DNA from: Centroscyllium fabricii
Lineage: Eukaryota
NCBI GenBank assembly: GCA_051313645.2
Contig: JBNRSN020000354.1
Span: 1-64,000, forward strand
Direction of reading: 5' to 3'
DNA length: 64,000 bases
In this document: in pieces, positions 20,501-54,366 of the stretch
Position numbering within the stretch: position 1 is the first letter of the stretch
Layout of the letters: each line of letters begins with the position of its first letter
Position numbers and translations under genes: made by a program
The notes under the pieces: generated by a model
Seen by the model: the letters and a program-made list of their open reading frames with translations, nothing else
Databases searched by the model: none
Told to the model about the DNA's origin: nothing

Positions 20501-20890
20501 TCTGCACTTGGCCTCAGTACCCTGCCTGTGACGGGGTCACTGATCCGGGGCCCTGCACTTGGCCTCAGTACCCTGCCTGTGATGGGGTCACTGATCCAGG
20601 GCTGTGCCCTTGGCCTCAGTACCCTGCCTGTGACGGGGTCACTGATCCGGGGCCCTGCACTTGGCCTCAGTACCCTGCCTGTGACGGGAGTCACTGATCC
20701 AGGGCTGTGCCCTTGGCCTCAGTACCCTGCCTGTGATGGGGTCACTGATCCGGGCCACTGCACTTGGCCTCAGTACCCTGCCTGTGACGGGAGTCACTGA
20801 TCCGGGGCCCTGGGCTTGGCCTCAGTACCCTGCCTGTGATGGGTCACTGATCCAGGCCACTGCACTTGGCCTCAGTACCCTGCCTGTGAC
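2529..20890. repeat. GC-rich tandem satellite, 51/52-bp unit CCTGTGAYGGGGTCACTGATCCGGGGCCCTGCACTTGGCCTCAGTACCCTG, about 355 copies, with higher-order duplications
   Basis: Seen directly. Identical ORF-track entries recur at offsets of 5416, 4125, 1188 and 409 bp. Confidence 0.99.
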
Positions 20891-21442
20891 AGGGGCACAG
20901 ACAAGGCCACTGTACCCTGTGGCTGTGATTTGCTCCACTGTCAATGTCTGGGTTCATCGCCATTTTCGTGAGGTGATGGGTCGCCACCTTCCCCTCTTGG
21001 GAAGCAGTGAGATCCAGCGCCTGCGTAGTGGGGTGGGGCATGGATATTGTTGAAGTCAGACTGCCCTGGTTTTGTCTTGTGCTTGGAATCATTTATCTCC
21101 TGCCAGTCATTAAAATCAAGATTCATTTTTGACCCACACTCTGGCTCGTGTGTGTTGGTTTGTGTTGGTTTACCAGTGCAGTGTGGATTTGTGCACACAA
21201 TCTCTCACATGGGACATTATGGTATTCAGTACAAATGGAGGTGCATTCCTGACAAGGAGCAGACAATTGGAAAGCAAATCAGTATGTACTAGCAACTCTT
21301 ACCCACCTGAAAAAGTAGTCAACCCTCCCTCTTGATGAGGGACTGGCATGTGCCATGGCAAGTAGATGGGTAACAGTCTGCTTCTAGTATTTGTTTTCCG
21401 CAATCAAAATCACTGGTATATTTGTGTTTCAGCTCTGTCACA

Positions 21443-35500: not shown

Positions 35501-37093
35501 CTTAAAAATGACAAACTCTGCAACTTGTAAACAAACCCTTTCGGAACGGTTTCCACACAAATTCTCGTTCGAGACAACCTTCGTGGAGCGAGACCCGTTA
35601 ACAGCTATTGCAGGAAATCTGGAAAAGTTTAAAAGTAGTCTCATTTCCAGGGTTCAGTGAGCCCCAGCAACAGATTAAAGAATCGCCCAACACTGTCTCT
35701 AAAAAATCAGAGACATTTGGGTGGATTACTTTGCAAGGCAATTTAAAAAAAAATCAACATAATTAAAAAGAAACAATTTAGTCCAACTAATTGAGCTTTA
35801 ATTTGACTGGAACCTAACCAGCCTCCCCCCAAAAAATGACAATTAAATGGCGGAGCAGGACCGAGGGGCCGTATGGCCTACTCCCGCCCCTACTTATGTT
35901 CTTAATCTCTGCTTTCCGACAAGAAGAGGGATAAAACAATGTAGGGCCTTTATAACTTTCTAACCTTGAGTCATCACTGGGTGGGGGGAGGGATTTAGTT
36001 TTCAATCCTTCCCCATCAATAAAAACTAAACTAAAACATTTACTTCAGAGGCTCGCCTCCTTTTGCTCCTCAAAACTGAAAGGGATTGTCATCAGCACTT
36101 CAATCTACTGCCGTAACACAAAGACGGCCAGCTTCCGCTCACAAATGGCTAAATGAAGACCATCTGGAAGTTGCCCGCTGTCGACTGCCTGATTTCAGCA
36201 ATGTAGTAAGCTGCAAACCAGCTCGTTAACAAATGGAATTACTTTGGATTAAACAGCAATAAATGAACTGACCACTCAAAATACCATATAGAGGCTAACG
36301 GGGAAACTCCCTCCTTCAACATCCAATTTCTAAAGAGGGTTTACAACACACACACACACTCAGCTACTCACTAGAACCTAGTGTTTTAATACAAAGCTGT
36401 GCTTCAATACTTGGGTCAACAGTGGAATGACACCACAAAAATGGCAATTTGGAACCTTGCCCACAACTCCTGATTCTTTGGGTTTACAGATTACTCAATG
36501 CCTTTTATATAAAATACCCAACATGGTGAGGATTCAAACACTAAATGAGAGTTCTCCCATCTGAAGTTACCTGCTTTACTCCTTCAATGAATTTGAATCC
36601 CCACCACTACCCCCCCCACCCAAGACTGATTACACAATCCTCTTGGTTTTAGCGGTCTTCCATCTCGCTTTGCTGTTGCGCCAACGAATCACAAAATATA
36701 GGACGAGGAAACACGACAATAACACAGGCCTGAAATGTAAACCACACCTTTAGCAATTCGACAAATTGCACAAAACCCATTTAAAGCACTGCAAGGTTGT
36801 TAAATGGAATCGGATGGGTCCAGAGAATCCACAGTCCAGCTCCATCCGTTCCCATTCAAAGCCGCACTTCAATTTCTCATATTGCTAAAGCACATAGAAC
36901 AAACAAAAAGAAAAATGCCTGTGTGCTTTGCAGGTGCAGGTTACTGAGCAGGCAGGCCATCTCAGATCCCATGCAGCAACACCCAGTTTATTTTTGTTGT
37001 TATTTTTTTTTAAACTGTCCAGTGCTCGGTTGTTTTTCATAAGGTTGTCCTGTCTGTGCCTAACCCACGTTACACAGTTCACGGAGGCAGCAT

Positions 37094-37255
37094 CTAATGG
37101 TCCCCCGCCCATGTTCCAGTGGTTAGGTGCCCGTTGGTCCCGTTCGTGCTGTTGGCACCTTTGGAGGGACTGTGGTGATGGAGTTTTGTGCCGTTAGTTA
37201 TGGAATCGTCATCATCGGAGCTGCTCTCAATGTCACTGCGATCATCCTTAGAGAC
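37094..37255 (-). CDS. CERS5: Ceramide synthase (CERS5/6 type) last coding exon: VSKDDRSDIESSSDDDDSITNGTKLHHHSPSKGANSTNGTNGHLTTGTWAGDH*
   Basis: Acceptor TTTTTCTCTTCAATCCAG, phase 0, 162 nt ending in TAG. VSKDDRSD(I/V)ESSS is diagnostic of CERS5/6; adjacency to COX14 favours CERS5. Confidence 0.9.
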   Translation of the reverse strand, partial: VSKDDRSDIESSSDDDDSITNGTKLHHHSPSKGANSTNGTNGHLTTGTWAGDH

Positions 37256-38594
37256 CTGGATTGAAGAGAAAAATTACATTATATTTACGCATCATCAGGT
37301 AGCGATGCACTTTGCCTCCTTGCGTGTCACTTCCACTTTCAAAGCTGGAACCGTATAACAAAATCACAGCTCTCATTTGGGTCAAACTCCCGTCTCCCCA
37401 CCCAGTGCAGTACGTGTGTTGAAAACAGAACGTTGCGTTAGTTATGTAGCACCACACAGGGTCAGTTGGTGGTCTGGGCTAATCCTCTACAAGTTCCTGA
37501 TCACAGCAGGTCCATGCTGGGAAGGTGCTGAGCTAAGCTGAGGCAAGAGGAGGAGAGAAAGAAAGAGGGCAAGTCACCCTGGAGATTTTCATGTCCCCAG
37601 CCCTGGTCCATTGGAAGGAGGTCACCACCTGATTCTGGGAATGGTGCACAAGATCAGAAAGCTCAAGGAGAGGCAGGATTAACGGAAAACACATATCAAA
37701 AGAAAAATTAATAAAATAGGGAAAAGGATAAACTTAAACTTCCAAGATTCCCCAAATGCGGAGTTGCTACATTCAGAAGTCAAGAACTGTAAAATTTAAT
37801 TCCCATTAATCCTTCAATGGATTTCTGCAGAATTTGTGTTTCTCCCAGGCCACGTACGGACGGTGCCACAGAGAGCAAGTAGCTGCCTTGCTCCAAGGTC
37901 TCGCCGACTGGTCGTTTGTCTGGCAGACGGTTGGAGGTGTACGCCAGTGACCGAGTGGTGACATCGTGATGACCCCTTGTGGGGAGGGATTTGACTTCAG
38001 GCTGTGGCAGCAGGACTGAGATCAGGAGCTCAGTGGAGAGTGAAGGAGATTTGAAGCTGCATTCATCGACTCTGTGGTGCCATTAGCTCCAGACCACCAT
38101 CGGCAGACTCAGTATAAAAACGCAGCCGCACGCCAGTAAATCACTAAATAAATTCCAGTGTTCGAACTTTGCAAAAAGTTAGGTATGCAAGGTAAAGTGG
38201 TTAAAAACCAAGGAAAATACCTTCTCCTGGGCAGGGATGAAGTGCTTAATTGTATAATAAATCTGACTAGAGTCAGAACTCAATGTTAATAAATGACAAG
38301 ACTACGCGTAAGTAAATTAAAGATCGAGTCTCACCATCAGGAACCCTTTTAAAAGTTGCACAACTGAAAACCAAGTTGACACTTTTATTCTGTTCAATTT
38401 GAATTCTTGTGTTTGAATTTGCAAGCGCCGATGACATCGGGGAACTTTGCAGGAGCTACCAAGTCTAACTTTGAGGGACTTGGGGCTGTTCTTCAGCAAA
38501 GGGGGTCCTTGCAAAATGACATTAATTCAGCTCCCTTTACCGGGGTTTGGTCTCAAACAAAAAAAATGGAATGAACGACACAGAACGTCAAAAC

Positions 38595-39092
38595 AATAGG
38601 AAGGATGTGATTGCTTTGGAGAGGGTGCAGAGGAGATTCACCAGGATGTTACCTGGGCTGGAGCACTTCAGCTGTGAAGAAAGACTGGACAGGCTGGGGT
38701 TGTTTTCCTTGGAGCAGAGAAGGCTGAGGGGGGAACCTGATTGAGGTGTACAAAATTATGAGGGGCATAGATGGGGTAGATAGAAAGGAACTTTTCCCCT
38801 TAGTAGAGGGGTCAATAACCAGGGGGCATAGTTTCAAGGTAAGGGGCAGGAGGTTTAGAGGGGATTTGAGGAAGAGCTTTTTCACCCAGAGGGTGGTTGG
38901 AATCTGGAACTCACTGCCTGAAAGGCAGGAACCCTCAACATTCAAGAAGCATTTGGATGAGCACTTGAAATGCCACAGCATACAAGGCTACGGACCAAGT
39001 GCTGGAAAATGTGATTAGAGTAGACAGGGCTCGATGGCCGGCGCGGACACGATGGGCCAAAGGGCCTCTTTCTGTGCTGTATAACTCTATGA
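38595..39092 (+). mobile_element. CR1 LINE 3' fragment (same subfamily as 23048-23764)
   Basis: [21 protein letters not shown]..; tail CTGTGCTGTATAACTCTATGAC. Confidence 0.92.
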
Positions 39093-40337
39093 CTCGAAAT
39101 GAGATCAGACTTCTTAGTAAATGCTGCAATTTTAAAAAAGTAATACCGATGGCGAGATTGCCTCTGAAATTAGCTCGTGGTTTTCTGGTGATGTTACTGG
39201 GCATTATAAGGAAGGGGCACTCTTCCACTAGATATGCTTGGATGTTAAGGGCAGGTCAACTCTGGGCCACTTTTAAACCCTTTTAAATAGTTCATAAAAG
39301 TTACGTACTGGTGTGATGGGAGGCCCTGAAGTTCTGCTGCCAGACTTGGCAAAGTTAAACTCTCCATTACAGAAGTCATTACTATAATTACTACAGATTA
39401 TTGACCTACTTTCTCCCCAAATGTAGCAGCTTTGGAAGCTGCCTGTGTTCCGTAGGATTTTAGTCTCCAACAGTTACTCTCATTTTACTTTTTTTCCCCC
39501 CCTCAAGAACAATGGTCCCAAGCTGATGCTGCCCGTCTCCTAGCAACCACGCCACAGCAGCAGAGGCCCCAAGAGCACGATGCACTTTCCCCTTTCGGAC
39601 ACGGGGCTGCGAGGTCTAGGGTGACCCCGAGGGGGAGAACACCCAGCAATTGCCAGCCGAGAGCCTGAGTGGATGCTTTACTCCCGAGCCTGTGCCAGCG
39701 CGGCTTTACGACAAGTTGCCAGAAGCGCCAGTGACCCAGGGCAACATGCCCTCGGAATATTTACCTTGCCCCGTAGAAAGCTCTGTCCCCAGTGGCTCGG
39801 CTATGATTACTGGGAATCCGGTTATTTGAAATAAGCAAAACCAGCCAAAAACCCAGGAATCCTTTACAGAATAGGGAGACAACGCCAGTTTTCAAAAGAT
39901 GAAGTTGAATCAGACCACTTAAAAAAAAATACATGTAAGTTAGTCACTTAAAGTGCAAACTGACTTCTGAGCATATCATTGAAGTTTGTATGGCAGAAGT
40001 CTGCAATGTGTCAGCTTCGGTTTGCTTTTCGGCAGGATACGAAACAGAAAGGTCACAAACCGTTTGCAACTCAAAATCCTCATTAATTCAGGTCACTGCT
40101 GGCTCCTGAAAGGACAAACACTAACCACAGCAAATCATTAAACAGTACACAGACTCCCCACCCATTATTTGGTACTTTTCCACCATTGTCATAACTCCCA
40201 AATAACCCAGGAGGTGGCACTATCAAACTGGGCAACAGGACAGTGGCAAAGCTGCAAAGAAATCGCACCTCAGAGTCAGCATTTCAGAAGTTGCTTTGAA
40301 TAAAACTAGGTACAACAAAAGGTCCCGCTTGTGGGAA

Positions 40338-40436
40338 ATAACAACAGGAAATGCTGGAGAAACTCAGCCGGCCAGGGCAGCATCAGTGGAGAGAGAAACA
40401 GAGTTAACGTTTCAGGTCGAAGACCTTTCGTCAGAC
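40338..40436 (-). mobile_element. Solo Penelope terminus with hammerhead-like core
   Basis: Minus strand reads CTGACGAAAGGTCTTCGACCTGAAACGTTAACTC; stem I is poorly paired. Confidence 0.75.
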
Positions 40437-40490
40437 CGGTTACCACAAAGCAAAAATATTCAACGTTTCTTTTAAATGTAAAAACATATC

Positions 40491-41283
40491 GGTGGGGATT
40501 TTCCTGAAGGTGCGGCGATTTGGCGGGTTTTGGTTGGGTCGGGTTTCTGGCCCGCCCGCGGGCCTGGGAACCCCACGCAAATTTGGCTTAAGTGGCCAAT
40601 TAACTCCCCGCGTGCGGGGAGCCACTTCCAATTGCCTAAATCGGGTCGGAAAGCAACGGGCTGCAGCTGGGAGCCGGAGCTTTGATGGACAGTTCTAGGG
40701 ACTGTCTGTTGTCAGTTTCCATGGAAACAGTCCACTGTGACATCACAGTAGAGTGCAACCAATCGCAAAGCCCAAGTGTGTTGAGTGACAGGTGTAAGGA
40801 TGCACTGCCAATCTTTCAGAGTTCGGGACCAAGCATTTCATCATCTGTCAAGGTGAGTCTTTTCAGTGTTTTCGCCACAGATGGTCATCAGAAAAGGGAG
40901 TCACTTACACCTCCAGGGTGTTGAAGGCCTGGAAAGCATTCTGCTCTAGGTCCTTCAATGCCTTGAAGGTGAAAGTGACCTAGCCGACTGTGATCCTGCT
41001 AGCTTTTACTGGCGGGGTTTCAGGATGGCAGGGAATGGGTGGGAAGGCCTTTAAAATCACAAGGGGCCCTTAAAATGGGATTACCCATGGCAATTAAGGG
41101 CCCCTAATTACCTCAACGATCAACCCCGCCGGTGACGGGCGGGAAAGAATCGGGACGGGAAAACAGGCCCGCGGAAAAGTGCAAATCGGCGGGGATCCGA
41201 CCCCCCCCCCCCCCCCCGGGTTTTGCGATTTTAGGGCCCGCCCCGCCGGAAACCCGCCCTCACAGACCCGTGAAAATTCCCCC
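40491..41283. mobile_element. Non-autonomous TIR element (PIF/Harbinger-like)
   Basis: Ends GGGGATTTTC / GAAAATTCCCCC. Homologous in inverted orientation to 52915-53682. Superfamily assignment is inferred. Confidence 0.6.
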
Positions 41284-42553
41284 ATAGTCTGTGCGTAACA
41301 ATCAAGAAAATGCGGTAATTTTAAATATCCAATCATACGCCAATATACCACAGCCAAAAGGCTCGTCGCGCACATCATCTAGTTTTGGATGAGCATATTT
41401 TTGAGATGCAGGCACAAAACCATTGATTTAAAAAAAGATAAAAGTGATGCATAAAACATAGGTCAAGAGAGTGGCTTACCAGCCCTGTTAGACAACAGCT
41501 GGGATACGATCTGCCTTTGGGAAGCATGTTCCTTTTGAAGAGCTAAGGAGGTTCTATTCATTAATACAGTACAATTCATGGTTTGTTCTTTAAAATTTCA
41601 GAAATGCAGGTCAACATTTAGTACAGGAAGGGTAAAGGTCAAAAAGGTGAAGCACAGGAAGGGGGCATGAATTATTCGGACGCGGGTTCGATCGCCAGGC
41701 TGCTGGTCTCTGGCAAGTCAGCATGGGGAGGAGTCAAGCAGCAGCCAGGCTCGGCCCAATGGTGGGTGGAGAGCTGGGGCTGCCATCCCCACCCGTACTC
41801 AGAGCCTGGCTCAAACAGCCCGGGTAACGGGGGGGGGGGGGGGGGGGGGAGGGGAGGAAACTCGAACATAGGGGGATGGCATCCCCACAAAAAAAGGGAA
41901 GCTACTGCAAAGGTACCTTTCTCTCTATCCCCTCCCAATCTGTAAATAATTGTAGTGGCGTATTAGTTCTTGCAATCCAGATTAAATAAAATTATCTTTT
42001 TTTTAAAAAGCAGCCTAGTTACATTTGTTAGCAATGTTAACAGATACGGGAGTAAATATATTTACACATGAATGAACTCATTCAGATAACCAAAAAAGTA
42101 GTCACTCAAATTAAACATATCACATTTAGAAACCTCAGGGTTTTCACTTTCCCACGTCCCCAAATACATAGAACTTTGGGGGTGGGGAGATTTTCTTTAG
42201 TCAAGTTGAAGGTTAAAACAGCTTCTTTTCTGGAATGACAGCAGATTAAACCAGTTGGCCAGTGCTTTCACTAGCTCAAGGCCCATACGTTCAAATCACA
42301 CCGGATGGTGGCTGCGCAATACAGACAGATCACCTGGTGCGTTTAAACACCTAAAGAGAACCAATAACTGAAAGAGCGAGGTGAACAAGAAATGGTTCAC
42401 ATGTCCCAACAGAACAGGCACCTTTTCTATTGTAAATAAATCACCAGAAAAGCGCTCTTCTCTTCCGCAACTCTCCAATCACTTGTACATGTGCTGCCCA
42501 ACAGTGCTCGGAGCATGGGGGCAGGAGGAAGGGAGGTGATGAATTGTTTACAC

Positions 42554-45500
42554 TGTAGTGCTTACACGACCCAAGGATCAAGCAGGAGCCGAAGAGGGAC
42601 AATCAACACTTCTTTATTCAACCAAGCTTAAACAGAAAGAGTGTGAGCCACGAGGAGCAGGCTCTTTTAAAGCCCCTGCTCAGCAACCTCTGACCTCTGA
42701 CGTCATCGCGTCACCCGGTGGGCGGGGCTATGCCCCGCAGTATTCCCGAGGCGGATTCGCCAGCCAGCGATCCGCCACACAGCTCCCCCCAGAATCCGTC
42801 CGAGGGAAAAAGTCTACAAGAGGCGTCGTGGTGGCCGTATGGTGCGGCCGGCACGGGTCTTGCGTTGCTCCTGGTGCTGCGGTGAGTGTGGGTGGGTGGT
42901 GGTGCGGGAGGGCGTCCGCGTTGAGGTGGTTGGGCCGGGACCGCCATGTCGCCCGCTATCATGTGAGCCGGTTTCAGCCGGTCGATTGACACAGTTTCAG
43001 TTCGGGTGCCCAGCTGCAAATCAAAAGTTTTAGGTCCCGCCCGAAGCACTCTATAAGGGCCGTCGTAGGGTGGCCGTAGAGGTGTGCAATGAGCGTCGTG
43101 GTGGACGAAAACGAACTTGGCTTGCTGGATGGAGTCCGGCACATGTGCCACCGGCTCCCCGTGCCGGGTCACCGGTAAGGGGGCGAAAGTTCGTGCCGGG
43201 TTGGCGAAGTCTTTGAGAAACTGGTCCGCCGACCAGGTGGCGTTCGATTAGGGGAGAAACTCGCCCGGCACTCTCAATGTCTGGCCGTAGACCAGTTCCG
43301 CTGCTGAGGCGTGCAAGTCCTCTTTGGCCGCCGAGCGGAGTCCGAGCAATACCCATGGTAGGCGGTCTGTCCAGGATGCGTCTTCCAGGCTGGCCCGCAG
43401 GGAGGCTTTCATTGAACGGTGAAACCTTTCGCACAGCCCGTTCGCCTGCGGGTGGTACGCGGTCGTTCTGTGCAGGGTCACCCCGAGGTCGCGGGCGATA
43501 GCAGCCCATAGTGCCGACGTGAACTGGGGACCTCTGTCTGACGTGATGTCGGTGGGCACACCGAAACGGGCGACCCAAGTTCCAATGAACGCCCTGGCTA
43601 AGTCCATAGTATTGGTTGCAGCCAGGGGGACTGCTTCTGGCCAGCGAGTGTTGCGATCCACCATCATCATCAGATGGGTGTGGCCCCGGGACGGCGGCAG
43701 TGGTCCGACGAAATCGACGTGGACATGGTCGAAGCGCCTGGCTGGTACGGTAAAGTTTTCTAGAGGGGCCTTGACGTGTTTATGCACTTTGGCCCGCTGA
43801 CAGGCGATGCAGGCGTTGGTCCAGGCGCGGACGTCCCTACGAAGGCCGCGCCACACAAAACGGGCCGAGATGAGCTTGATGGAGGCGCGGGTGCCGGGGT
43901 GGGACAGGCCGTGGAGGGTCTCAAAGATGCGCCGCCTCCATACCTGGGGGACGACGGGCCTGGGCTGCTGCAGTGAGATGTCGCAGCACACTACGGTGGC
44001 CACGGGGCATGCTGGCCAAACGTAAGCCGGGGAGCTTTTCTGCCGGGGCTCGAAGATCTGGGTCCGCAAGTTGGTCTGCTGCCAGTTTGGCGTAATCCAC
44101 CGCCATTTGGGCGGCGTTGATGGTGGGGCGTGACAGGCAGTCGGCTACCACGTTGTCGCGGCCGGAGATATGCTGTATGTCGGTCGTAAATTCCGACACG
44201 GCCGCGAGCTGGCGCTGCTGCCTGGCCGACCAGGGTTCGGTGATCTTAGCCATCGCAAAAGTCAGCGGCTTATGATCCACGAAGGCTGTGAAATGACGGC
44301 CCTCAAGGAGGAAGCGAAAATGGCGCACAGCGAGGTAGAGAGCAAGGAGCTCCCTGTCGAAGGCGCTGTACTTGACCTCCGGGGGCCGTAGGTGCCGGCT
44401 GAAAAAGGCCAGGGGCTGCCAAGAGTTGTCCACCCACTGTTCAAAAACGGCCCCGACGGCCTGGTCGGAGGCGTCAGTGGTGAGGGCCACTCTGGCGTTG
44501 GGCCTGGGGTGGGCTAGGAGGGTGGCATTAGCTAGGGCGGTCTTAGTTTCGGTGAACGCGGTGGCGGCGTCAGCCGTCCACTCGACAGCGGCTTTGCTGG
44601 ACTGCCCGCGTGTGGCCTGGTATAGGGGAGCCATGAGGGCGGCTGCTCCCGGGATGAAGCGGTTATAAAAATTAACCCTCCCGAGGAACTCCTGCAGGCC
44701 CTTGACAGTGTGCGGGCGGGGGAACTCCTGGACCGCCTGCACTTTGGAGGGCAGGGGTATGGCCCCGGCTTTGGAAATGCGGTGGCCCAGGAAGTCTATA
44801 ATGTCCAGGCCGAATTTACACTTTGAGGGGCTTATATAAGGCCGTGTTCTGCCAGGCGCTGGAACAGGGTCCTGAGATGCAGGAGGTGCTCCTGGGGGGA
44901 GGTGCTGGCCACGAGGATGTCGTCTAGATAGACGAAGATGAACTGCAAGTCCCGTAGGACTGAGTCCATTAGGCGCTGGAAGGCCTGGGCCGCGTTTTTG
45001 AGCCCAAAGGGCATTCTCAGGAACTCGAACAGGCCAAAGGGGGTTATCACGGCTGTCTTAGGGACATCCGCCGGGTGCACCGGGACCTGGTGGTAGCCAC
45101 GTACCAGGTCGATCTTGGAAAAGACCGTGCAGCCCGCTAGCCTGGCGGAGAAATCCTGAATGTGGGGTACGGGGTACCTGTCTGGGGTGGTGGCGTTATT
45201 AAGGCGGCGGTAGTCGCCGCAGGGGTGCCAACCTCCGCCCGGCTTGGGGGCAATGTGGAGGGGAGAGGCCCAGGGGCTGCTGGAGCGGCGGATTATGCCG
45301 AGTTGCTCCATTGTGTCAAACTCAGCGCGCGCAATCTCCAGCTTGGCCGGGTCCAGCCTGCGGGCGTGGGCGTGTACGGGAGGGCCGGTGGTGGGAATAA
45401 AATGTTCCACCCCGTGTTTGGCCGGTGAAGGTGGGGTTGGTCAGTGTCGGGAACTCGGAAAGGAGCGCACTGTACGCGTCGGAGTTCCGGGCACGGCATC

Positions 45501-46973
45501 GTGCCGCTGCGTGGGCTAGTAGTGCCGGCCCCACGGAGCATGGGATGGGTGACATGTTTTTGATGTCGACCAGACGGCGCCGGGTCATGTCGACCAGGAG
45601 GCCGTGTGCGCACAGGAAATCTGCCCCAAGGAGGGGTGAAGTGACCTTGGCTGTGACGAACTCCCATTCATACGTATGGCCGGCAAGCTGGATGGTTAGC
45701 TTGCGGGTCCCGTATGTTTTTATGTCAGAGCCGTTAGCCGCTGCGAGGGGCGGGCCCTGGGTACCTTGTTGGGCTTCTGCGGGGGAGGCTGGCATGATGC
45801 TGTGTTGTGCGCCCGTGTCGCAGACAAACCGGAGACCCGTGCCTCTGTCTGTAACATAGAGCAGGGCTCCGGCGTGGCCTACGGACATGGTGGGGGCTAG
45901 GCTGGGGCTTGAACGTGCAGGGCAGGACGCAGCGGTGCGCTTTGGCGCCGAACCGCGCATTTTAGTAACACCAACCGGTGCTCACGGCCCGCGGTTGTCT
46001 GGGAGGGTGCGGGGTCTTGGTTGAGGCATCGGGGCGGACATGGGGGGCGTGTTGGCTGGCTCGACTGCCGCGGCGGTCAAGTCACACGTGGCGGAGCGGG
46101 TGCGCTTGGCTGCCATGAGCCTGTCGGCTTCCTCGGCTAGCTCGTCCCCGCTCAGGTTCCTGAGAGCCGCCAGGGCCGGTCTGATGGAGGGGGGCAGCTT
46201 AAGGAGGAAAATGGTGCGGAACAGAGAGGCGGGGTCGGTGGTCAGCGCCTGCATCTGGCCCCAAAGGTCAGATGGGTCTGCGTCCCCGAGTTCGGGGAGG
46301 TTGAGAAGTTGGCAGTCGCGCTCGAACTGGGTCGGGGTGAATTTTTTGAGTAGCGCAGCCTTAATAAAGTCGTACCTGCCTGTTGCAGGCGCGCTCTGTA
46401 ACTTTGACCACATCCGGTCGATCGTCGACTGCGGTAGAGCCGTGAAGACTAGGTCATAGCGGTCGTCCCCCTAGATGCCATGGGTGCGGCAGCTGGTCTC
46501 GATGCACATGAACCACGCTGCCGGGCGTTGCTCCCAGAACTCTGGTAAAGTCAGTCGGTGCCCGGGGTTCTGGCCACATCCTTGCTGACGGGAAGGCTGG
46601 TTTCTGTTAGTTGTGGACATCGTTGCAGGTTGCGTGTTCAAAATGTCCCGAGGCTGTACAGACTGCTTGGCTTAAACCCTGTTAAGCTGCTATTTTCTTC
46701 TCGGAAGATGTTCCAAGACGGGGTCACCACTGTAGTGCTTACAGGCCCCAAGGATCAAGCAGGAGCCGAAGAGGGACAATCAACACTTCTTTATTCAACC
46801 AAGCTTAAACAGAGAGTGAGCCACGAGGAGCAGGCTCTTTTAAAACCCCTGCTCAGCAACCTCTGACCTCTGACGTCATCACGCTGAGACGTGATGACGT
46901 CATCGCGTCACCCGGTGGGCGGGGCTATGGCCCGCAGTATTCCCGAGGCGGATTCGCCAGTCAGCGATCCACA
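42554..46973 (-). mobile_element. Full-length Ty3/Gypsy LTR retrotransposon, CsRn1/Kabuki-like lineage, decayed
   Basis: LTRs at 42554-42779 and 46731-46973 (TG...CA). TSD ACAC at 42550-42553 and 46974-46977. PBS TGGTGACCCCG (tRNA-Trp) at 46719-46729. PPT GGGGGGAG next to the 3' LTR. Domain order gag-PR-RT-RH-IN. Confidence 0.95.
42800..46620 (-). pseudogene. Gypsy gag-pol with several frameshifts and stops
   Basis: Gag with degenerate CHCC knuckle (WCY*NARFGAKAHRCVLPC); protease CDTGA; RT PFGLKNA and YLDD; RNase H TDAS..ELLALY..DHKPL..NVVADCLSR; integrase HGLSHPG..CIAC, VDFV..SDRG..NGLCERFH; GPY motif PPYDGPY. Confidence 0.92.
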
Positions 46974-47485
46974 ACACAACGTTTTATTTAGGGATTGATT
47001 GATCGCTTGCCTCTGGCATGTATCTTTATATCTAGGGGCTCCAGATTGACACACATTCTTAACCTAACAACAGGAGTAGAACATTTGACTGCTACTTTGT
47101 TAGCCAAATTAGTATTGTTTGCTTGTAATCTGAATTCTGTGCCTTTTCGCCTCCCCACCCACCTCACTCCAATAGCCTTTCTTCCAGAGTAAACATCACA
47201 ATTGATTCTGCATCTGTGGCCTTCTGGAACAATGCACTCCACATTCTCAAGTTTTTCCTGAATTCACTTTTGCTCAAATTCGAAGATTCTGTCCCTTTGT
47301 TCTCGATTCTAGAGGGCAGAGTCATTGCTCAGTTTACCCGGTCAACTCCCAATGTTATTTTAAATGCTTCAATCAGATCACCTCTTAACCGTCTTCATCG
47401 CCAGGAACGGAGGCCAAGTTTACCCACTCATCATATCTCCGTGCCTTCTGCCTCACTGGCGATCAGCTAACAGTATAAACCAGGA

Positions 47486-48680
47486 TTTCAGCATTCCGTA
47501 GGGACCACTCCCTCCGAGACACCCTAGTCCACTCCTCCATCACCCCTTCCCCATGCACCTTTCCATGCAAGCGCAGGAGATGCAACACCTGCCCTTACAC
47601 CTCCCCCCATCCCACCGCCCAGGGCCCCAAACATCCCTTCCAGGTGAAACAGCGATTTACTTGTACTTCTTGCAATTTAGTATACTGTATTCGCTGCTCA
47701 CGATGCGGTCTCCTCTACATTGGGGAGACCAAAGGCAGATTGGGCGACCGCTTTGCGGAACACCTCCGTTCAATTGAAAGCACCTACCTGAAACGCTGCC
47801 TACGGAGGTCTCAGAACATTATTAAAGACCCCACACACCCCAGCCATAGTCTGTTCGCCCCCCTGCCCGCCGGCAGATGCTACAGATCAATTTGCACCCG
47901 CACGACCAGATTCAAGAACAGCTTCTTCCCCAGGGCTGTCAGTCTCCTGAACTCTAACAAAAACTCCATCCTCTGCACACCTGAAATGTACTTTATTGTA
48001 TGCAACCCATGTAACTTATTTGCACTACTCTCAGGAACGGCGAGTCTACGTTTCGTTGTATTGTACTGGTACACTGCAATGACAATAAAATTGAATTGAA
48101 TTGAATTCAGTCTGTAAGGGGGACCCTGAGCTCCCGGTGGCCTGTCACTTTAATTCTCCGCTTCACTCCCACTCTGATCTCTCTGTCCTTGGCCTATCAC
48201 ATTGTTCCTCGGAAGCTCAGCGTAAACTCGAGGAACAACACCTCATCTTCCGATTAGGCACTTTACAGCCCTCCGGACTCAATATCGAGTTCAGCAATTT
48301 CAGATCATATCTTCGGCCCCCATTATAGTTTTACCTATTTTTATCCACACCTTTTATTTGGCCATTTTCTCTCTCTCTTGGCAGCCACCTCCCATTCTGC
48401 CAGTGCTTTTCACACCTAATCTATAGCTGTCTCCTGTCCACAGCCCCATCACCATCTCGTCTCATTTTGAAAACCTCTTAATGTCTTTTCTCTTTGTTCT
48501 CTCTTTTCTTTTGTTTTCTCTTCCCTTTTGTTCCCTCCCAGCTCCCCCGGCCTTCTCACCCGTTTCATTTCCTTGCTTTAGTCTTGACAAAGGGTCCTAA
48601 CCCGAAACGTGAACTCTATATTTCTCTCCACGGATGTTGCCTGGCCTGCTGAGTTTTTCCAGCATTTTCTGTTGTTATTT
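47486..48680 (+). mobile_element. Penelope-like element 3' fragment (GIY-YIG) with 14-bp TSD, interrupted by a Rex1/Babar piece
   Basis: FTCTSCNLVYCIRCSRCGLLYIGETKGRLGDRFAEHLRS..PVACHFN..LEEQHLIFRLGTLQPSGLNIEF. TSD AGTATAAACCAGGA at 47472-47485 and 48681-48694. Confidence 0.92.
47773..48105 (+). mobile_element. Rex1/Babar-type non-LTR 3' fragment nested in the Penelope element
   Basis: CLRRSQNIIKDPTHPSHSLFAPLPAGRCYRSICTRTTRFKNSFFPRAVSLLN; tail AATAAAA(TTGAA)n; short TTCA duplication at the junctions. Confidence 0.82.
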
Positions 48681-49083
48681 AGTATAAACCAGGAACTGAA
48701 TCTGGAGCCTTCCTGGTGTGTGAGAGACAGGACCACACCAGAGAGAGAGGCAATGGAATTATCAACCAAGACTCAGGAAAGCTCACAAAGAGTTGGTTTT
48801 TTTTAATGGATAAGTACGTCCCAAGTGCTGAGCATCCCTTGCAGTTAAAGCCTTTCTTTCCTGAACTTACAGCATGACAGTATATTAAAGGTATATTGAA
48901 TGCCTTTTATGGCCTTGGGCTGGAATATCTGCATGATTTCATTCTTGGTGGCTGGTTAAGGCAGCAAGTGGTGGGGAGCATAATGTCATTTACTGGCAAT
49001 AATTGCAGCCCCTTCGTGCACAATATGCAGGTAAGTGGTTATCGTGCGATTATTTCAGGCTGCGATGTGTAGGTTATTGACAT

Positions 49084-49145
49084 CATGCAAAGCAAAAGGG
49101 GGTGATGACATTGTAGAGCATACCAAGAAAGATACAGCCCATGCA
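49084..49145 (-). promoter_or_regulatory. Two RBFOX motifs (UGCAUG) downstream of the microexon
   Basis: CATGCA on + at 49084-49089 and 49140-49145, both in the context GCUUUGCAUG on the transcribed strand. Confidence 0.55.
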
Positions 49146-49221
49146 AAGCAGAAAGGGTTGCACATCGCGAAATAATCAGGCAAAGTGTCGGACGACTGAC
49201 TCCAACAGTTGCAACACTTAC

Positions 49222-49245
49222 AAGCAAAAGGTCCCACTTCCCAGA
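49222..49245 (-). CDS. CERS5: Candidate 24-nt alternative microexon of the ceramide synthase (SGKWDLLL)
   Basis: Pyrimidine tract, AG|TCTGGGAAGTGGGACCTTTTGCTT|GTAAGT, phase 0/0 matching the flanking exons. It resembles the 8-aa AGKWNPLH insert recalled from mammalian CERS6. Confidence 0.75.
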
Positions 49246-49974
49246 CTTCCCGGTGTACAGAGACAGAAAGAATAAAAACACAAGGGGACAAAAATACAAG
49301 AAACAAAATGAAACCAAATCTTGTACCACAGAAAAGACAGTCAAGAAATTCTTCCTCATTTGGACTGTTTGAGCGAATACACATACACGGATAAAGACAC
49401 ACACACACGCAGGAGGAACAGAACACCAAGAACAGCAGCAGCACCAGGATCTGGACGCACAGATGGTGTATCACTAATTCATTCACCATTGAGCTCATTC
49501 GCTATAGCTTCCACCCCTCCTACATGTCGCTTCGAAAACTTGTAATACATTACCTTTCAGTAGCTTCAAAAAAAAAATCACCAATTGATATCTCGGTGAA
49601 TCAGTTAAAATTCAAGACTAAATTAGAGTCTCGAATCATTATATTCCGGGCCAGAGCGAGACCCCAAGCTCCTCGAATCTTGACCCGCCAGGCCAGAGAG
49701 AGCGAGAGGCCTCCATCCCCTCTCTGAAGCCATCGGAACGGAAGAAAATGTGGGCACTCGAGCTGGCAGTGGACTCAAGTCCACCACACAACACAGTTCA
49801 TCCAATTGGCAGACTGAGAAACTGAGCTCAGAAAGGATAGAGGATTACAGTGGGTGGGAGAGGCAACAGTCATGTGGCTGCTGGTGTTCTGCTGCGATTT
49901 ATCATGGGGGGGCGGGTGGATTTTCTCAAGTCAGTTCCAGGTTCTAAATATTTTGAGAGTGCTGGATACCATTA

Positions 49975-50542
49975 CAGGTCGAGCACCGGTAATCCGGCAC
50001 CCGATGGTCTGGCGCCTTCAGTGGTCCGGCGCGATCATTTTGCGGAGCAGCCGCTCGGCGGCGCCACCGTTTCCAGTGAAGGGTGAGCGAGCGCTAAAGG
50101 CGTCGGGTGTTTGGGTTTCTGTTTTTTTAGGGTTTTGTAAGTGTTCTATCCTGGGGAGTGTTCTACCCGCGTGCTCCGGGCCCCGGGGAGTGTTCCGCCC
50201 ACGCGCTCCGGGCCCCGGGGAGGTTTCTGCCCACGCGCTCCGGGCCCCGCGGAGTGTTCTACCCGCGCGCTCTGGGCCCCGCGGAGTGTTCTACCCGCGC
50301 GCTCCGGGCCCCGGGGAGTGTTCTACCCGCGCGCTCCGGGGAGTGTTCTGCCCGCGCGCTCTGGGCCCCGCGGAGTGTTCTACCCGCGCGCTCCGGGCCC
50401 CGCGGAGTGTTCTACCCGCGCGCTCCGGGCCCCAGGGAGTGTACTACCCGCGTGCTCCCCCCGAACCTTCAGTGGTTTGGAATTTTCAGTGGTCCGGCAC
50501 CGACCTGGTCCAGAGGGTGCCGGATTACCGGTGCTCAACCTG
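49975..50542. mobile_element. Tc1/mariner (Tigger-like) MITE with TA TSD and an internal ~32-bp GC-rich tandem repeat (about 50155-50460)
   Basis: TA|CAGGTCGAGCACCGGTAATCCGGCACC ... GGTGCCGGATTACCGGTGCTCAACCTG|TA; repeat unit GAGTGTTCTACCCGCGCGCTCCGGGCCCCGSG. Confidence 0.88.
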
Positions 50543-51987
50543 TATTTGGTGAAAGTGGAATTTCACACTCCTCCCCTATCCTCCGGAGAACTAGAAAGTT
50601 AAGAAAACAGTGAAACACCATTACTTATGCGGCGGAAACACAAACATGCAAATGGCATCACAAAGAAAATATCATGGGCATTAACTATAGGGCACGTGTG
50701 TTCTAGAATATTCTTGAATATGCTCCCCACCCCCACCGCCCCCCCCCCCCAGTTTGCTCTTCCCACTTTTCTCCCCATCTCTCCTGAAGGAAGAGCCATG
50801 CTGGGTGGGTACAAACGGTTCTCCAGTATCTCAGCCTGGATAGTGGACAGTAGAAGAACTCAATCACGAGGGCAATCGTAGCCAAGCCCCATCCTGTTCT
50901 TGTCCACCGAGGGAAGAAACAATCGACAGTGTTGGGTAACAGGTGCATTCTTCTGGAGATTCAGCCCCCGTACAATGTCACTGAAGCACATCCTCAAAAA
51001 GAGAGGGAAACTAAAGTAAAGGCACAACTTCAACAGAGCAACCCGAGGAGCTCACATGGAGAGTATGCCCACAGTTGCCTGCTCATTGCGGTGCTAAATT
51101 CACTCAAAAGGTGCGTCTTCTTAGCCGTGTAGTTTATGTACCTGCTAAAGGCCAAGATTGTATCAAACGTCAGGGAACATTAAATCACAAACCCAAAAGT
51201 CTTCAGTCTTTAAATCAGCATCATAATTGGGTCACATGATAACAGACGGTCAGAGTTCACCCAAACCCATCATTACCTCCAGAAAATGCAAAACAAAATT
51301 AAACGTCACCTAGAAGTGGAGAGATTTCGCTAATGAAGTTACAATTGAAAATGAATTAACTGTCAGCGCACAGGACAGTATTATTAACCTTTATAGCGCA
51401 ATACTCCCGCGACATACCGTTCATAGCCAGGCTGTTGTGACTCTGGTTCGAAGTTTATTGATTGTGCAATCGGGTGAGCAGGATTTGCAGAGAAAGCAGA
51501 CCTCAACCCATTAATTAAAAAAAACACACTTGCACTGAAACCCAATCTGAACGTACATCGCTTTTTTTCCTTCCTCCTTTCCTGGAGGCCAACTCTTGAT
51601 GGAGTATGAGTCAATGGGTGCTGGCACTCCTTTGGTACCTCTTCAATATGGCCATTTGAAATGTGCGAGCCCAATGAGAGGGCCAGGCAGGCTGCAACAA
51701 TCAACGGACAATGGGAAATGCTCAGAGTAACTGGGCCGACTGTATAGGCCTTACCACCAACTCTGCCGAGACCGCTAGAAGCTTATTTGTATAGCTCAGC
51801 TTGACTAACTAGCTAAGCCATTCGGGGGGCTGGCTGGGGGGAGGGGGGGGGGGGGGGGGGGGGGGTGCGTGCAGAGAAAGTGAACAAAAAATACCTTTAA
51901 TACTTGAGAAATTGCTTCTGTGAAACAGGACCAACACTCAGATCAATAACATTCAGTGTGCTGAGCCATTTTAAAAAAATAAAAAAT

Positions 51988-52460
51988 TCTCAGGATGTGG
52001 GTGTCGCTGGCAAGGCCAGTATTTATTGTCTATCCCCAATTGCCCTAGAGAATTACATTGAATATACAGCACAGACACAGGCCATTCGGCCCAACTAGTC
52101 CATGCCGGTGTTTATGCTCCACTCGAGCCTTCTCCAATCCTTCCTCATGTAACTATCAGCATAACCCTCTATTCCCTTCTCCCTCATATCCTTGTCTGGC
52201 TTCCCCTTAAATGCACCTATACTATTTGCCCAGGGAGGGACCGCCAGGATTTTGACCCAGCAACGATGAAAGAACAGCGATATATTTCCAAGTCGGGGAT
52301 GGTGTGTGATTTGGAGGGGAACTTGGAGGTGGTAGTGTTCCCATGCGCCTGCTGCTCTTGTTCTTCTAGGTGGTAGAGGTTGCGGATTTGGGAGGTGCTG
52401 TCGAAGCCGCCTTGGCGAGTCGCTGCAGTGCATCTTGTAGATGGTGCACACTGCAGCCAC
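51988..52460 (-). mobile_element. Nested CR1/L2-clade LINE 3' fragments
   Basis: GATGTGGGTGTCGCTGGCAAGGCCAG tail; AVCTIYKMHCSDSPRRLRQHLPNP; a second CR1 tail at about 52060-52230. Confidence 0.65.
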
Positions 52461-52914
52461 GGTATGCCGGTCTTCCCATCAGGACAGGTATCTGGTGACA
52501 TCACGGAGTTGAAAGCAGCCCAAGCCCGGGAATGTGGGTTAGTAACTGGGTATGCAGCAATTTCCCAGGGCTGGGATGGCTTTGAATCAGCTCCCAGGCT
52601 GGTTTGAAGTGAACTAAAACAAATGGGGCAACTCTGGGAGGCAGATGGCTCCACCAGCTCAGTGATGTCAATGGAGCAGTCAAGCGGGAAGGTCTTCACT
52701 GAGGTAAGAAATGTGATTTTATTTGGGAAAATATGGAGAACTTAAAAAAAAACTTCCTGTGGCATTGTAGACAGAGAATCAAGACCAAATATAGTCTTCA
52801 GGTGAAATGGGGTTAGAGGATGGGGGATAATTGGACCAGCATGCACAGATGTAATTCAAACCCCATTTTAAAAGGCATATATTCTGGTGTTTTAATACAA
52901 TATTTGGATTTTAT

Positions 52915-53682
52915 GGGCAAAGTTTTCATGTCGCCGTGAGGCAGGGTTTTGGGCGGGTCGGACGGCAAAATAGCGGAACCAGTGGGTCCTGACCCCACCC
53001 CCGGATCCCCGCCACTTTTCCATTTTCCGCCGCCCTGTCTCCCCGCCCCGAATCTTTCCCGCCGGCGGGGATGGTTGTTATGCTCATTAAGGGCCCTTAA
53101 TTGACATCTGCAATGTCATTTTAAGGGCCCTTAGCAATTTTCAACTCCTTCTCACCCAAACTCCGCCAGTGAAACCCAGCGGGAGCACAGTGGTCTTGCT
53201 AACTTTCTCCTTCAAGGTGTTGAAGGACCTGGAGCAAAATGCTTCCCAGGCCTTCAGGTGTAAGTGACTCCCTTGGGTGAAGACCAGCTGTGGGGAAAAA
53301 AACTTAAAAATCTTACCTTGCCAGCTCCATTGACAGCCGGTCCCTAGCTGTCAAAGATTTGCAGCCCACCCGCCACCTGTCACTCAGAGCACTTGGCCTT
53401 TCCCATTGGTTGCACTCCACTGTGATGTCACAGTGGAGTGTTTCCATGGGAACTGTAAACACACAGTCCCCGCAGCTGTCTGACAACCTCCTAGAATCCC
53501 GCTTGAGCTCCGTAATTGCCGACTGGACTGAGGCAATTACCAGGGGCACCGCACACACGGCGATTTAATTGCAATTAATGGAAAATAGCGTCGGCTTTCC
53601 AGGCCCTTGGGCGGGCGGGACAGAAACCCGCCCCAACCAATCCCCGCCAGGTTCCCGCACCTCCAGGAAACCCCGCCCCCCC
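52915..53682. mobile_element. Non-autonomous TIR element, inverted homolog of 40491-41283
   Basis: Shares CACTGTGATGTCACAGTGG, GTTTCCATGG, TGTAAGTGACTCCC and AAGGGCCC blocks in reverse orientation. Confidence 0.6.
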
Positions 53683-53889
53683 CTATATTTATAGTTAAGT
53701 GGCAAAGCTTAGGGGAATTTGAGAAGTAGAGTTGGTCGGAGCACAGGAGTTTCTTAGCAGTCCAGGCCTGGGACTTGAAGCTGCAATTGATGGTCAGGAG
53801 TATGGTGGGTTACCATGAGCCTGAGCTGAGGGCTCTCGCAAGAGGCGGCTGAAGAGAAAATAGTCGACTTTCAAAGATTTTAAATTTAC

Positions 53890-54046
53890 CTTTCCCTTGA
53901 GGACAGCTTTAAATGCGATGCGTATAATGAGATATGACCAGATGCCATGTAGAACCTGTAGTGTGAGCAACAGGAAATTGAAGAACCACCAAGACGGGTA
54001 TGGCCCAATGATCTCCCAACTTTCAAACAGTGTTGTGTTTAAAATC
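53890..54046 (-). CDS. CERS5: Ceramide synthase penultimate coding exon (157 nt): [52 protein letters not shown]
   Basis: Acceptor TTTTTCATTTTCAG, donor AAG|GTAAAT. Matches the CERS5/6 TLC-domain end ([19 protein letters not shown]). No upstream exon was found before the window end. Confidence 0.93.
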
Positions 54047-54366
54047 CTGAAAATGAAAAAAAAACACAAATCAACCTTCACTTTTGTAAACCCTTTCCAA
54101 CTGACGAGGCTAATAGTTACAAGTACTTACAAGTCTTTGTAAGCATTTGACTTTTTAAAGGAGTGTAAAACTGTCAGGATCCCTTTTGTCACATTAAAAG
54201 GGGGAAAGTGTGTGCAGAGGGGGGGAATTTTCAAACATCGTTAACCACTTTATTTTTAAAAAACGTCAATGTTATTATTTCCAGGAGACCCTGGAGAGCT
54301 GCTCTGGACTGACCTAATGCCAGGAAAGCACATTGCAGGCTAGAAAATCAGCACCGCCAACCTGTA

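Follow-up and report, generated by a model that had tools for sequence, protein, structure and literature searches.

INTRODUCTION

The closest described counterparts of the exon reported here are optional exons near the 3' end of the mammalian ceramide synthase genes CERS6 and CERS5. In human CERS6, the insert corresponds to Ala335-His342, and no isoform function is stated as known in the available text of PMC6315813. According to the accessible part of another study, glia and glioma differ in the CERS6 microexon, both in RNA and in ribosome data (PMC7156646). The human CERS5 exon, exon 10, lies at hg19 chr12:50526745-50526847, after a 157-nt exon (PMC11142752). The available sections of the same paper describe it as a non-triplet exon of 103 nt that is preferred in normal brain, stops early in the last exon, removes four phospho-serines (and the DxRSDxE motif) and fails to rescue C16-ceramide, and as a glioma-linked switch for C16-ceramide. 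Exon 10 is among the PTBP1- and SRSF3-affected entries in supplementary file 2 of that paper and is absent from its RBFOX1-overexpression list (8/8 CERS5 places). In mouse, an alternative Cers5 exon rises in the Ptbp1 knockout (available text of PMC7593632), and the forward primer given there reads as the upstream exon. A skipped-exon change in Cers5 after stroke is also mentioned in the accessible portion of PMC11607634. The parts of PMC13397177 and 10.64898/2026.09.05.749416 that were available hold nothing further on the exon. Among the matches listed in our literature search, no paper links the CERS6 microexon, CERS5 exon 10 and the non-mammalian forms.

A second point of reference is the SRRM3/4-dependent class of neural microexons. 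In the available text on that class, a UGC between the pyrimidine tract and the AG is found in 74-79% of members and is not strictly required (10.1101/2024.09.17.613571).

RESULTS

A shark ceramide synthase gene with a 24-nt in-frame unit in its last intron

We analysed a window of 64,000 nt (the whole stretch of DNA, at its full length) from Centroscyllium fabricii. It holds the last two coding exons of a ceramide synthase gene and the intron between them, with the following features:

53890..54046, minus strand: upstream constitutive exon (exon 9 of 10), 157 nt, ending KGK
49246..49319, minus strand: AG-free zone and pyrimidine tract (0.82 C+T at -60..-12)
49222..49245, minus strand: 24-nt frame-keeping cassette microexon, SGKWDLLL, upstream acceptor (AG before, GTAAGT after)
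49222..49236, minus strand: 15-nt in-frame alternative, WDLLL, second GGGAAG acceptor and same donor (the form in catshark and sawfish models)
49216..49221, minus strand: donor GTAAGT, the fixed exon end across CERS5 lineages (0-mismatch fit of read-through models)
49156..49221, minus strand: conserved intron stretch 3' of the donor (sawfish model fit)
49140..49149, minus strand: GCTTTGCATG, RBFOX-type site 1, TGCATG at +77 (sawfish peptide LLCM fits)
49084..49093, minus strand: GCTTTGCATG, RBFOX-type site 2, TGCATG at +133 (the sawfish model ends before this site)
37094..37255, minus strand: last exon, coding part, with VSK, DxRSDxE motif, serine/acidic cluster, NGH..W tail and stop

The host intron (53889-37256) is 16,634 nt long and in phase 0, and the last exon begins VSKDDRSD. 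Between the [KR]GK exon and this last exon, the location of the CERS5/6 C-terminal cassette exon, 49245-49222 is a stop-free unit with AG and GT at its ends and a length that is a multiple of 3 and within 27 nt. The original prediction had picked out this frame-preserving unit (AG, SGKWDLLL, GTAAGT) in a repeat-free setting, with two motifs about 77 and 133 nt downstream. On re-reading the sequence, we found the unit and the TGCATG cores at +77 and +133 as described, with no tandem repeats across 48537-50153 and no interspersed repeats in the microexon region.

The acceptor, GGGAAG, is weak. Its AG is the first to follow the 74-nt AG-free zone, and an identical GGGAAG 9 nt downstream would give an in-frame 15-nt exon (49236-49222). 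Upstream there are a branch-like TTTAT, at 28 nt, and TCTT/TCTCT motifs of the PTBP-type consensus. Longer exons from upstream AGs were also computed for the shark (98, 129, 133 and 143 nt); none was supported, and the 133-nt version would mimic the mammalian frameshift.

An intron of this length can hold AG..GT units by chance, and we counted 15 frame-keeping AG..GTRAG units of 3-51 nt in it. The microexon has the most pyrimidine-rich upstream stretch of the 15 (0.73). Moreover, among 12,286 stop-free 8-codon windows of the intron, SGKWDLLL has the joint highest score when compared with the inserts of lamprey and CERS6; it is the top match with both splice signals, the other top-scoring window having none. 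Homologous exons are annotated in lamprey, chimaera and CERS6, and homology by itself already refutes chance; we therefore regard a chance unit as vanishingly improbable.

Homologous inserts at the same junction

Inserts at this junction are present in automatic gene models of many vertebrates, for which a transcript basis is presumed. A lamprey CERS5/6-like protein (X1, XP_032807537.1) carries SGRWDSLH, and its X2 form skips it; in the lamprey cluster (10 members), two have SGRWDSLH, five skip and three differ. CERS6-type proteins with [AVST]G[KR]WNPLH number 35 of 331 and come from sharks, ray-finned fish, lungfish, frog and mammals. Human CERS6 isoform 2 (PDB 8qz6) carries AGKWNPLH, the mammalian insert named in the original prediction, and it is homologous to the shark unit.

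Most chondrichthyan CERS5 models (n = 26, with 15 of the 38 members of the main shark cluster listed) skip the exon: 22 skip, one has 24 nt, one has 15 nt, one has 15 nt with read-through and one has unrelated sequence. The 24-nt form is that of a chimaera (XP_042200124.1, SVKWDLCL) and the 15-nt form that of catshark X1 (P0014, KGK-WNILL-VSK); in sawfish X2 (P0125), KGK-WDLLL is followed by intron read-through. The sawfish peptide differs from the window at a minimum of 4 of 81 positions (15 exon and 66 intron nt), a fit of about 95%. Tetrapod CERS5 inserts have 10 residues in six frog and three bird models, and one turtle model has AGKFHPLH. A short insert was found in 0/86 hand-labelled ray-finned CERS5 models (77 skip, 9 other).

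Fitting these inserts back to the 24 nt of the window took 3-7 changes; shuffled sequences needed about 13-14, and 0-6 of 5,000 did equally well. At least 4 of the 24 nt have to change for lamprey and for CERS6, and at least 3-4 overall for chimaera, lamprey and CERS6; the CERS6 fit was equalled by 0/5,000 shuffles. The first three codons are one change from lamprey S-G-R and one change from CERS6 A-G-K. When 1.84 billion representatives were searched with the microexon frame, there was a single match, without G[KR]WD, which we read as unrelated.

Because annotated inserts and skipped forms occur at the same junction in relatives, we conclude from this comparison that 49245-49222 is a real, conserved cassette exon. 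It predates the CERS5/CERS6 duplication, as had been proposed, and is likely as old as vertebrates, because both paralogue lineages and lamprey have it, whichever ohnologue the lamprey gene is. The exon is not hidden, for CERS5 models of chimaera, catshark, frog, bird and turtle already include it. Nor is it specific to sharks, since other vertebrates have it and a likely human counterpart has already been studied (available sections of PMC11142752).

The shark copy could still be a decaying relic, homologous and rarely or never spliced in. Such a relic would fit the weak acceptors, the lack of an upstream TGC, the change of the PLH end to LLL, the 22/26 skipping chondrichthyan models and the 0/86 count in ray-finned fish. 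We consider it quite unlikely, given that frame, donor and motifs are intact, that inclusion models exist in catshark and chimaera, and that the sawfish fit of about 95% runs over the exon and 66 intron nt, with the context of the first TGCATG fitting as well.

Other sequences also occur at this junction. In Lampetra planeri (models P0270, P0271 and P0273) there is another insert, LVQATSLLH, of 9 residues, and there are two forms with a shifted frame; a second cassette in lampreys, or an acceptor drift of their own, may lie behind them. Six teleost CERS5 models (P0087, P0107, P0167, P0277, P0279 and P0285) have a hydrophobic alternative sequence after RGK, mostly replacing the tail, which could be an independent tail switch. 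Skate CERS5 X2 (P0121) lacks VSK after KGK, likely because another acceptor is used that lies inside the last exon, 9 nt from its start.

Acceptor choice and inclusion in sharks

The 24-nt form is used in chimaera, lamprey and CERS6. Both elasmobranch models with the exon (2/2), catshark with WNILL and sawfish with WDLLL, use the 15-nt acceptor. Elasmobranchs might use this downstream acceptor only, with a working exon of 15 nt and the S-G-K codons now part of the intron, and the two acceptors are the same weak GGGAAG. We hold this to be possible rather than probable: the S-G-K codons have kept their likeness to the lamprey and CERS6 inserts, the AG-free zone is first broken by the 24-nt AG, and the chimaera uses 24 nt. 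With 15 of the 38 main shark cluster members listed, both acceptors may be in use in sharks, as far as these models tell.

In four sequencing runs of relatives, among 24, no joint into the microexon was seen among the 15 of 208 joints listed for 36800-54100; the RNA nature of these runs is a guess, and the region is swamped by repeats. In one run, X5, which comes from a relative and is guessed to be RNA, a contig reads from exon 9 into the last exon with nothing in between. Depth over 48917-49493 was 0.13 in that run and 0 in the other three, and an adjoining repeat-bearing bin exceeded 15,000 in all four.

Flanking regulatory motifs

A mark of RBFOX-enhanced exons is a conserved (U)GCAUG no more than about 200 nt 3' of the exon. 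The microexon has two such sites, the first of which fits the sawfish model. Both copies of GCTTTGCATG in the whole intron (49149 and 49093) lie beside the microexon, and two of the six TGCATG copies of the intron are those at +77 and +133. For LLCM, the peptide read through in sawfish, the fit to 49151-49140 has 0 mismatches; it is a match at the protein level and does not distinguish TGC from TGT. Two TGCATG within 200 nt occurred in 28 of 6,990 windows from 70 kb of the other introns of the gene and in 33 of 1,644 host-intron windows (the microexon's own pair included); of 5,000 dinucleotide shuffles, 140 had such a pair. A further close pair (47569 and 47557) lies in 47552-47569, about 1.65 kb downstream of the microexon at a repeat-rich edge.

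TGC was not found in the 110 nt upstream of the microexon. Because the upstream UGC is absent, control by SRRM3/4 appears less likely. In the available part of a zebrafish supplement, no splicing entry is among the cers5 places listed (2 of 3), and no cers6 place is listed (PMC13281805).

The host gene is likely CERS5

The gene has ten coding exons at contig positions 37094-279651 (a span of about 242 kb), with the eight beyond the window further along the same contig, and a full product of 387 residues. For comparison, the available text of PMC6315813 gives 37.6 kb for the human CERS5 gene. Identity of the product is 91-94% with the elasmobranch proteins that bear the name CERS5 or 'CERS6-like', and 72-77% with shark CERS6. 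Its C-terminal tail pattern is NGH..W as in CERS5, not NG[YF]L.

Confirmation of CERS5 identity by a tree, which the original prediction had called for, was obtained in part. An unrooted tree (35 rows, inserts removed) placed the chondrichthyan clade and bony CERS5 opposite shark and bony CERS6 at 100/100. The rooted trees, which had partial CERS2/3/4-like paralogues as outgroups, were unstable. A 22-row rooted tree, which left out teleosts, the third paralogue described below and some others, gave CERS5 monophyly with a support of 61. In a 31-row tree rooted with partial outgroups, the shark clade joined CERS6 and lamprey at 99; its root fell inside bony (teleost) CERS5, and it carried a long-branch warning.

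The host gene could instead be another CERS5/6-type ohnologue or a sister of CERS6, in which case the exon story would be the same and the link to human exon 10 paralogous. Besides the 31-row tree, many NCBI names read '6-like', and the assembly shows no CERS6-grade gene. Yet Heptranchias has both genes, an orthologue of the host gene (93% identical) and a CERS6 (77%), and the unrooted split, the support of 61 in the reduced tree, the NGH..W tail and several NCBI models named CERS5 stand on the other side, with the contrary tree rooted on teleost CERS5 and flagged for long branches. We therefore judge the alternative unlikely. On the sequence comparisons, the host gene is most likely CERS5, and it is not CERS6.

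No recognisable neighbour gene lies within 257,689 nt upstream, and no LIM match was found on the host contig among the 150 of 1,083 candidates scored; downstream of the gene the contig ends in satellites. The human CERS5 neighbours are LIMA1, COX14 and GPD1. The satellite arrays at the contig start occupy positions 1-2107 and 2529-20898 of the window, with a 49-nt family and a 52-nt unit in 356 copies (92% match).

A CERS6-grade gene was not found in the assembly, where a shark CERS6 query matched the host gene best (55-76% per exon; 45/45 candidates scored); this may mean a true loss, a gap in the assembly or a stretch withheld from it. A degenerate exon-plus-donor pattern had one match in the assembly, the window itself, and 0 in the control; since the pattern was built to fit the window, this shows only that a second copy, and with it a CERS6 exon, is absent from the assembly.

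A divergent third CERS5/6-like gene lies on another contig (C778:35928600-36019000), and no microexon-like unit was found in its 2.2-kb last intron. Together with the 0/86 ray-finned CERS5 models, this indicates that loss of the exon is possible. Two proteins with the name 'CERS5', from goby and beardfish (P0263 and P0264), share the exon 9 start IRSV.FESW with the third gene and group with it at 90. This gene may survive in teleosts.

The mammalian long exon likely descends from the microexon

Eleven mammalian proteins continue after RGK with VT[YC][PQ]...SS[LF]A (one with PSFA), and six end in C[VI] followed by a stop. The tail of this long form is a shifted reading of the rodent or bird insert plus VSK, with 0-3 mismatches of 12 in 10/10 pairs, a match equalled by 0-1 of 2,000 shuffles. 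The in-frame reading VGAGQFHPLH persists in rodents. In turtle, bird and rodent, read-through models have ACKC as their last residues and fit the last four codons at the window donor with 0 mismatches, which argues that the donor is fixed and the acceptor varies. The lengths of the CERS5 exon differ: 24 nt in chimaera and one turtle model, 15 nt in two elasmobranchs, 30 nt in frogs and birds, and about 103-109 nt, shifting the frame, in mammals (103 nt in human and a deduced 109 nt in other mammals).

Because position, phase and stop agree, the mammalian long form is likely the published 103-nt human exon 10, with a length of 103 nt against the 109 nt deduced for the other mammals. Human exon 10 would then likely be a lengthened descendant of the microexon. 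With the donor fixed, the acceptor moved and the frame shifted, an in-frame tuner likely became a tail-deleting switch. As a whole, we consider it likely that a 24-nt microexon older than the split of gnathostomes and agnathans was kept unchanged in CERS6, that its acceptor wandered in CERS5, and that in mammals it became the non-triplet exon 10, a brain-specific, tail-deleting shutdown of C16-ceramide synthesis.

A box turtle CERS5 model (X2, P0180) continues after RGK with VRAPG..RP..SVPDWSWTVSSLACKC, which resembles the mammalian long exon at a deduced 103 nt. The long acceptor could thus predate mammals; alternatively, the model may reflect donor read-through.

DISCUSSION

We think it quite probable that 49245-49222 is a frame-keeping exon of a likely CERS5, homologous to the optional exon of lamprey, chimaera and CERS6, that is likely included mainly in nerve, adds 8 (or 5) residues and likely tunes regulation of the tail rather than catalysis. 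In the mechanism that we propose, a strong donor and a weak, purine-rich acceptor would make skipping the default. PTBP1 would bind the upstream TCTT/TCTCT tract and repress the exon in non-neural cells, a step that we model because the human and mouse counterparts respond to PTBP1, and RBFOX proteins on the two downstream TGCATG sites would promote inclusion; the absence of human exon 10 from the RBFOX1-overexpression list speaks against this last step. Inclusion would put the extra 8 (or 5) residues directly ahead of the DxRSDxE motif and a phospho-serine cluster, the kinase of which we presume to be CK2. Over evolution, the CERS5 acceptor would drift while the donor stayed conserved, giving exons of 15, 24 and 30 nt and the mammalian exon of about 103-109 nt.

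The insert lies three residues before DxRSDxE, in a tail that is predicted to be disordered. In the available text of the studies concerned, DxRSDxE is dispensable for catalysis in vitro and affects CerS-CerS co-precipitation (PMC8789539), and it affects ceramide levels in mice (PMC9292091). The accessible part of a cryo-EM study describes an included isoform that was cut at Asp350, with a dimer interface at TM1a/TM3 and not in the tail (PMC11919693). Because DxRSDxE is dispensable for catalysis and the dimer interface is at TM1a/TM3, the insert most likely tunes tail phosphorylation or partner binding, and would not act on the active site.

The exon was already present in automatic annotations of relatives; what is new is the likely descent of the frame-shifting human exon 10. 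The CERS6 insert and human CERS5 exon 10, treated singly in the available text of PMC6315813 and PMC11142752, are likely one ancestral exon. This would be a traceable case of an in-frame microexon turning into a frame-shifting exon by movement of the acceptor alone. We predict that the old 30-nt acceptor survives within exon 10 of mammals, because the in-frame rodent reading persists. If the descent of exon 10 holds, the ancestral in-frame condition persists in sharks, frogs and birds, which offer natural variants for the study of insert function. For sharks alone, the gain is a small one in annotation.

Among known systems, the 24-nt microexon of CERS6 resembles the shark exon in junction, length, frame and G-[KR]-W core, and has skipped and included forms. 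It belongs to a paralogous gene, however, and ends NPLH, whereas the shark peptide ends DLLL, its PLH end having changed. All CERS6 inserts seen have 8 residues; in CERS5, two elasmobranch models splice to the tandem acceptor that gives 15 nt. The lamprey and chimaera inserts, both automatic annotations, are like the shark exon in having 24 nt at the same junction, and share 5/8 and 6/8 residues, respectively, with SGKWDLLL.

SRRM3/4-dependent neural microexons, as described in the available text of bioRxiv 10.1101/2024.09.17.613571, share with the shark exon a length below 27 nt, a kept frame, a strong donor, and a weak AG at some distance from the pyrimidine tract. Unlike them, the shark exon has no UGC between tract and AG and has RBFOX-type sites downstream instead.

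Human exon 10 and the mouse Cers5 exon are optional and lie in the same intron as the shark exon, and the mammalian long forms end in homologous sequence and donor. In contrast to the shark exon, which keeps the frame and the tail, human exon 10 has 103 nt, is non-triplet and loses DxRSDxE and the phospho-serines. The PTBP1/SRSF3 effect belongs to human exon 10, whereas the shark exon is known here from its sequence.
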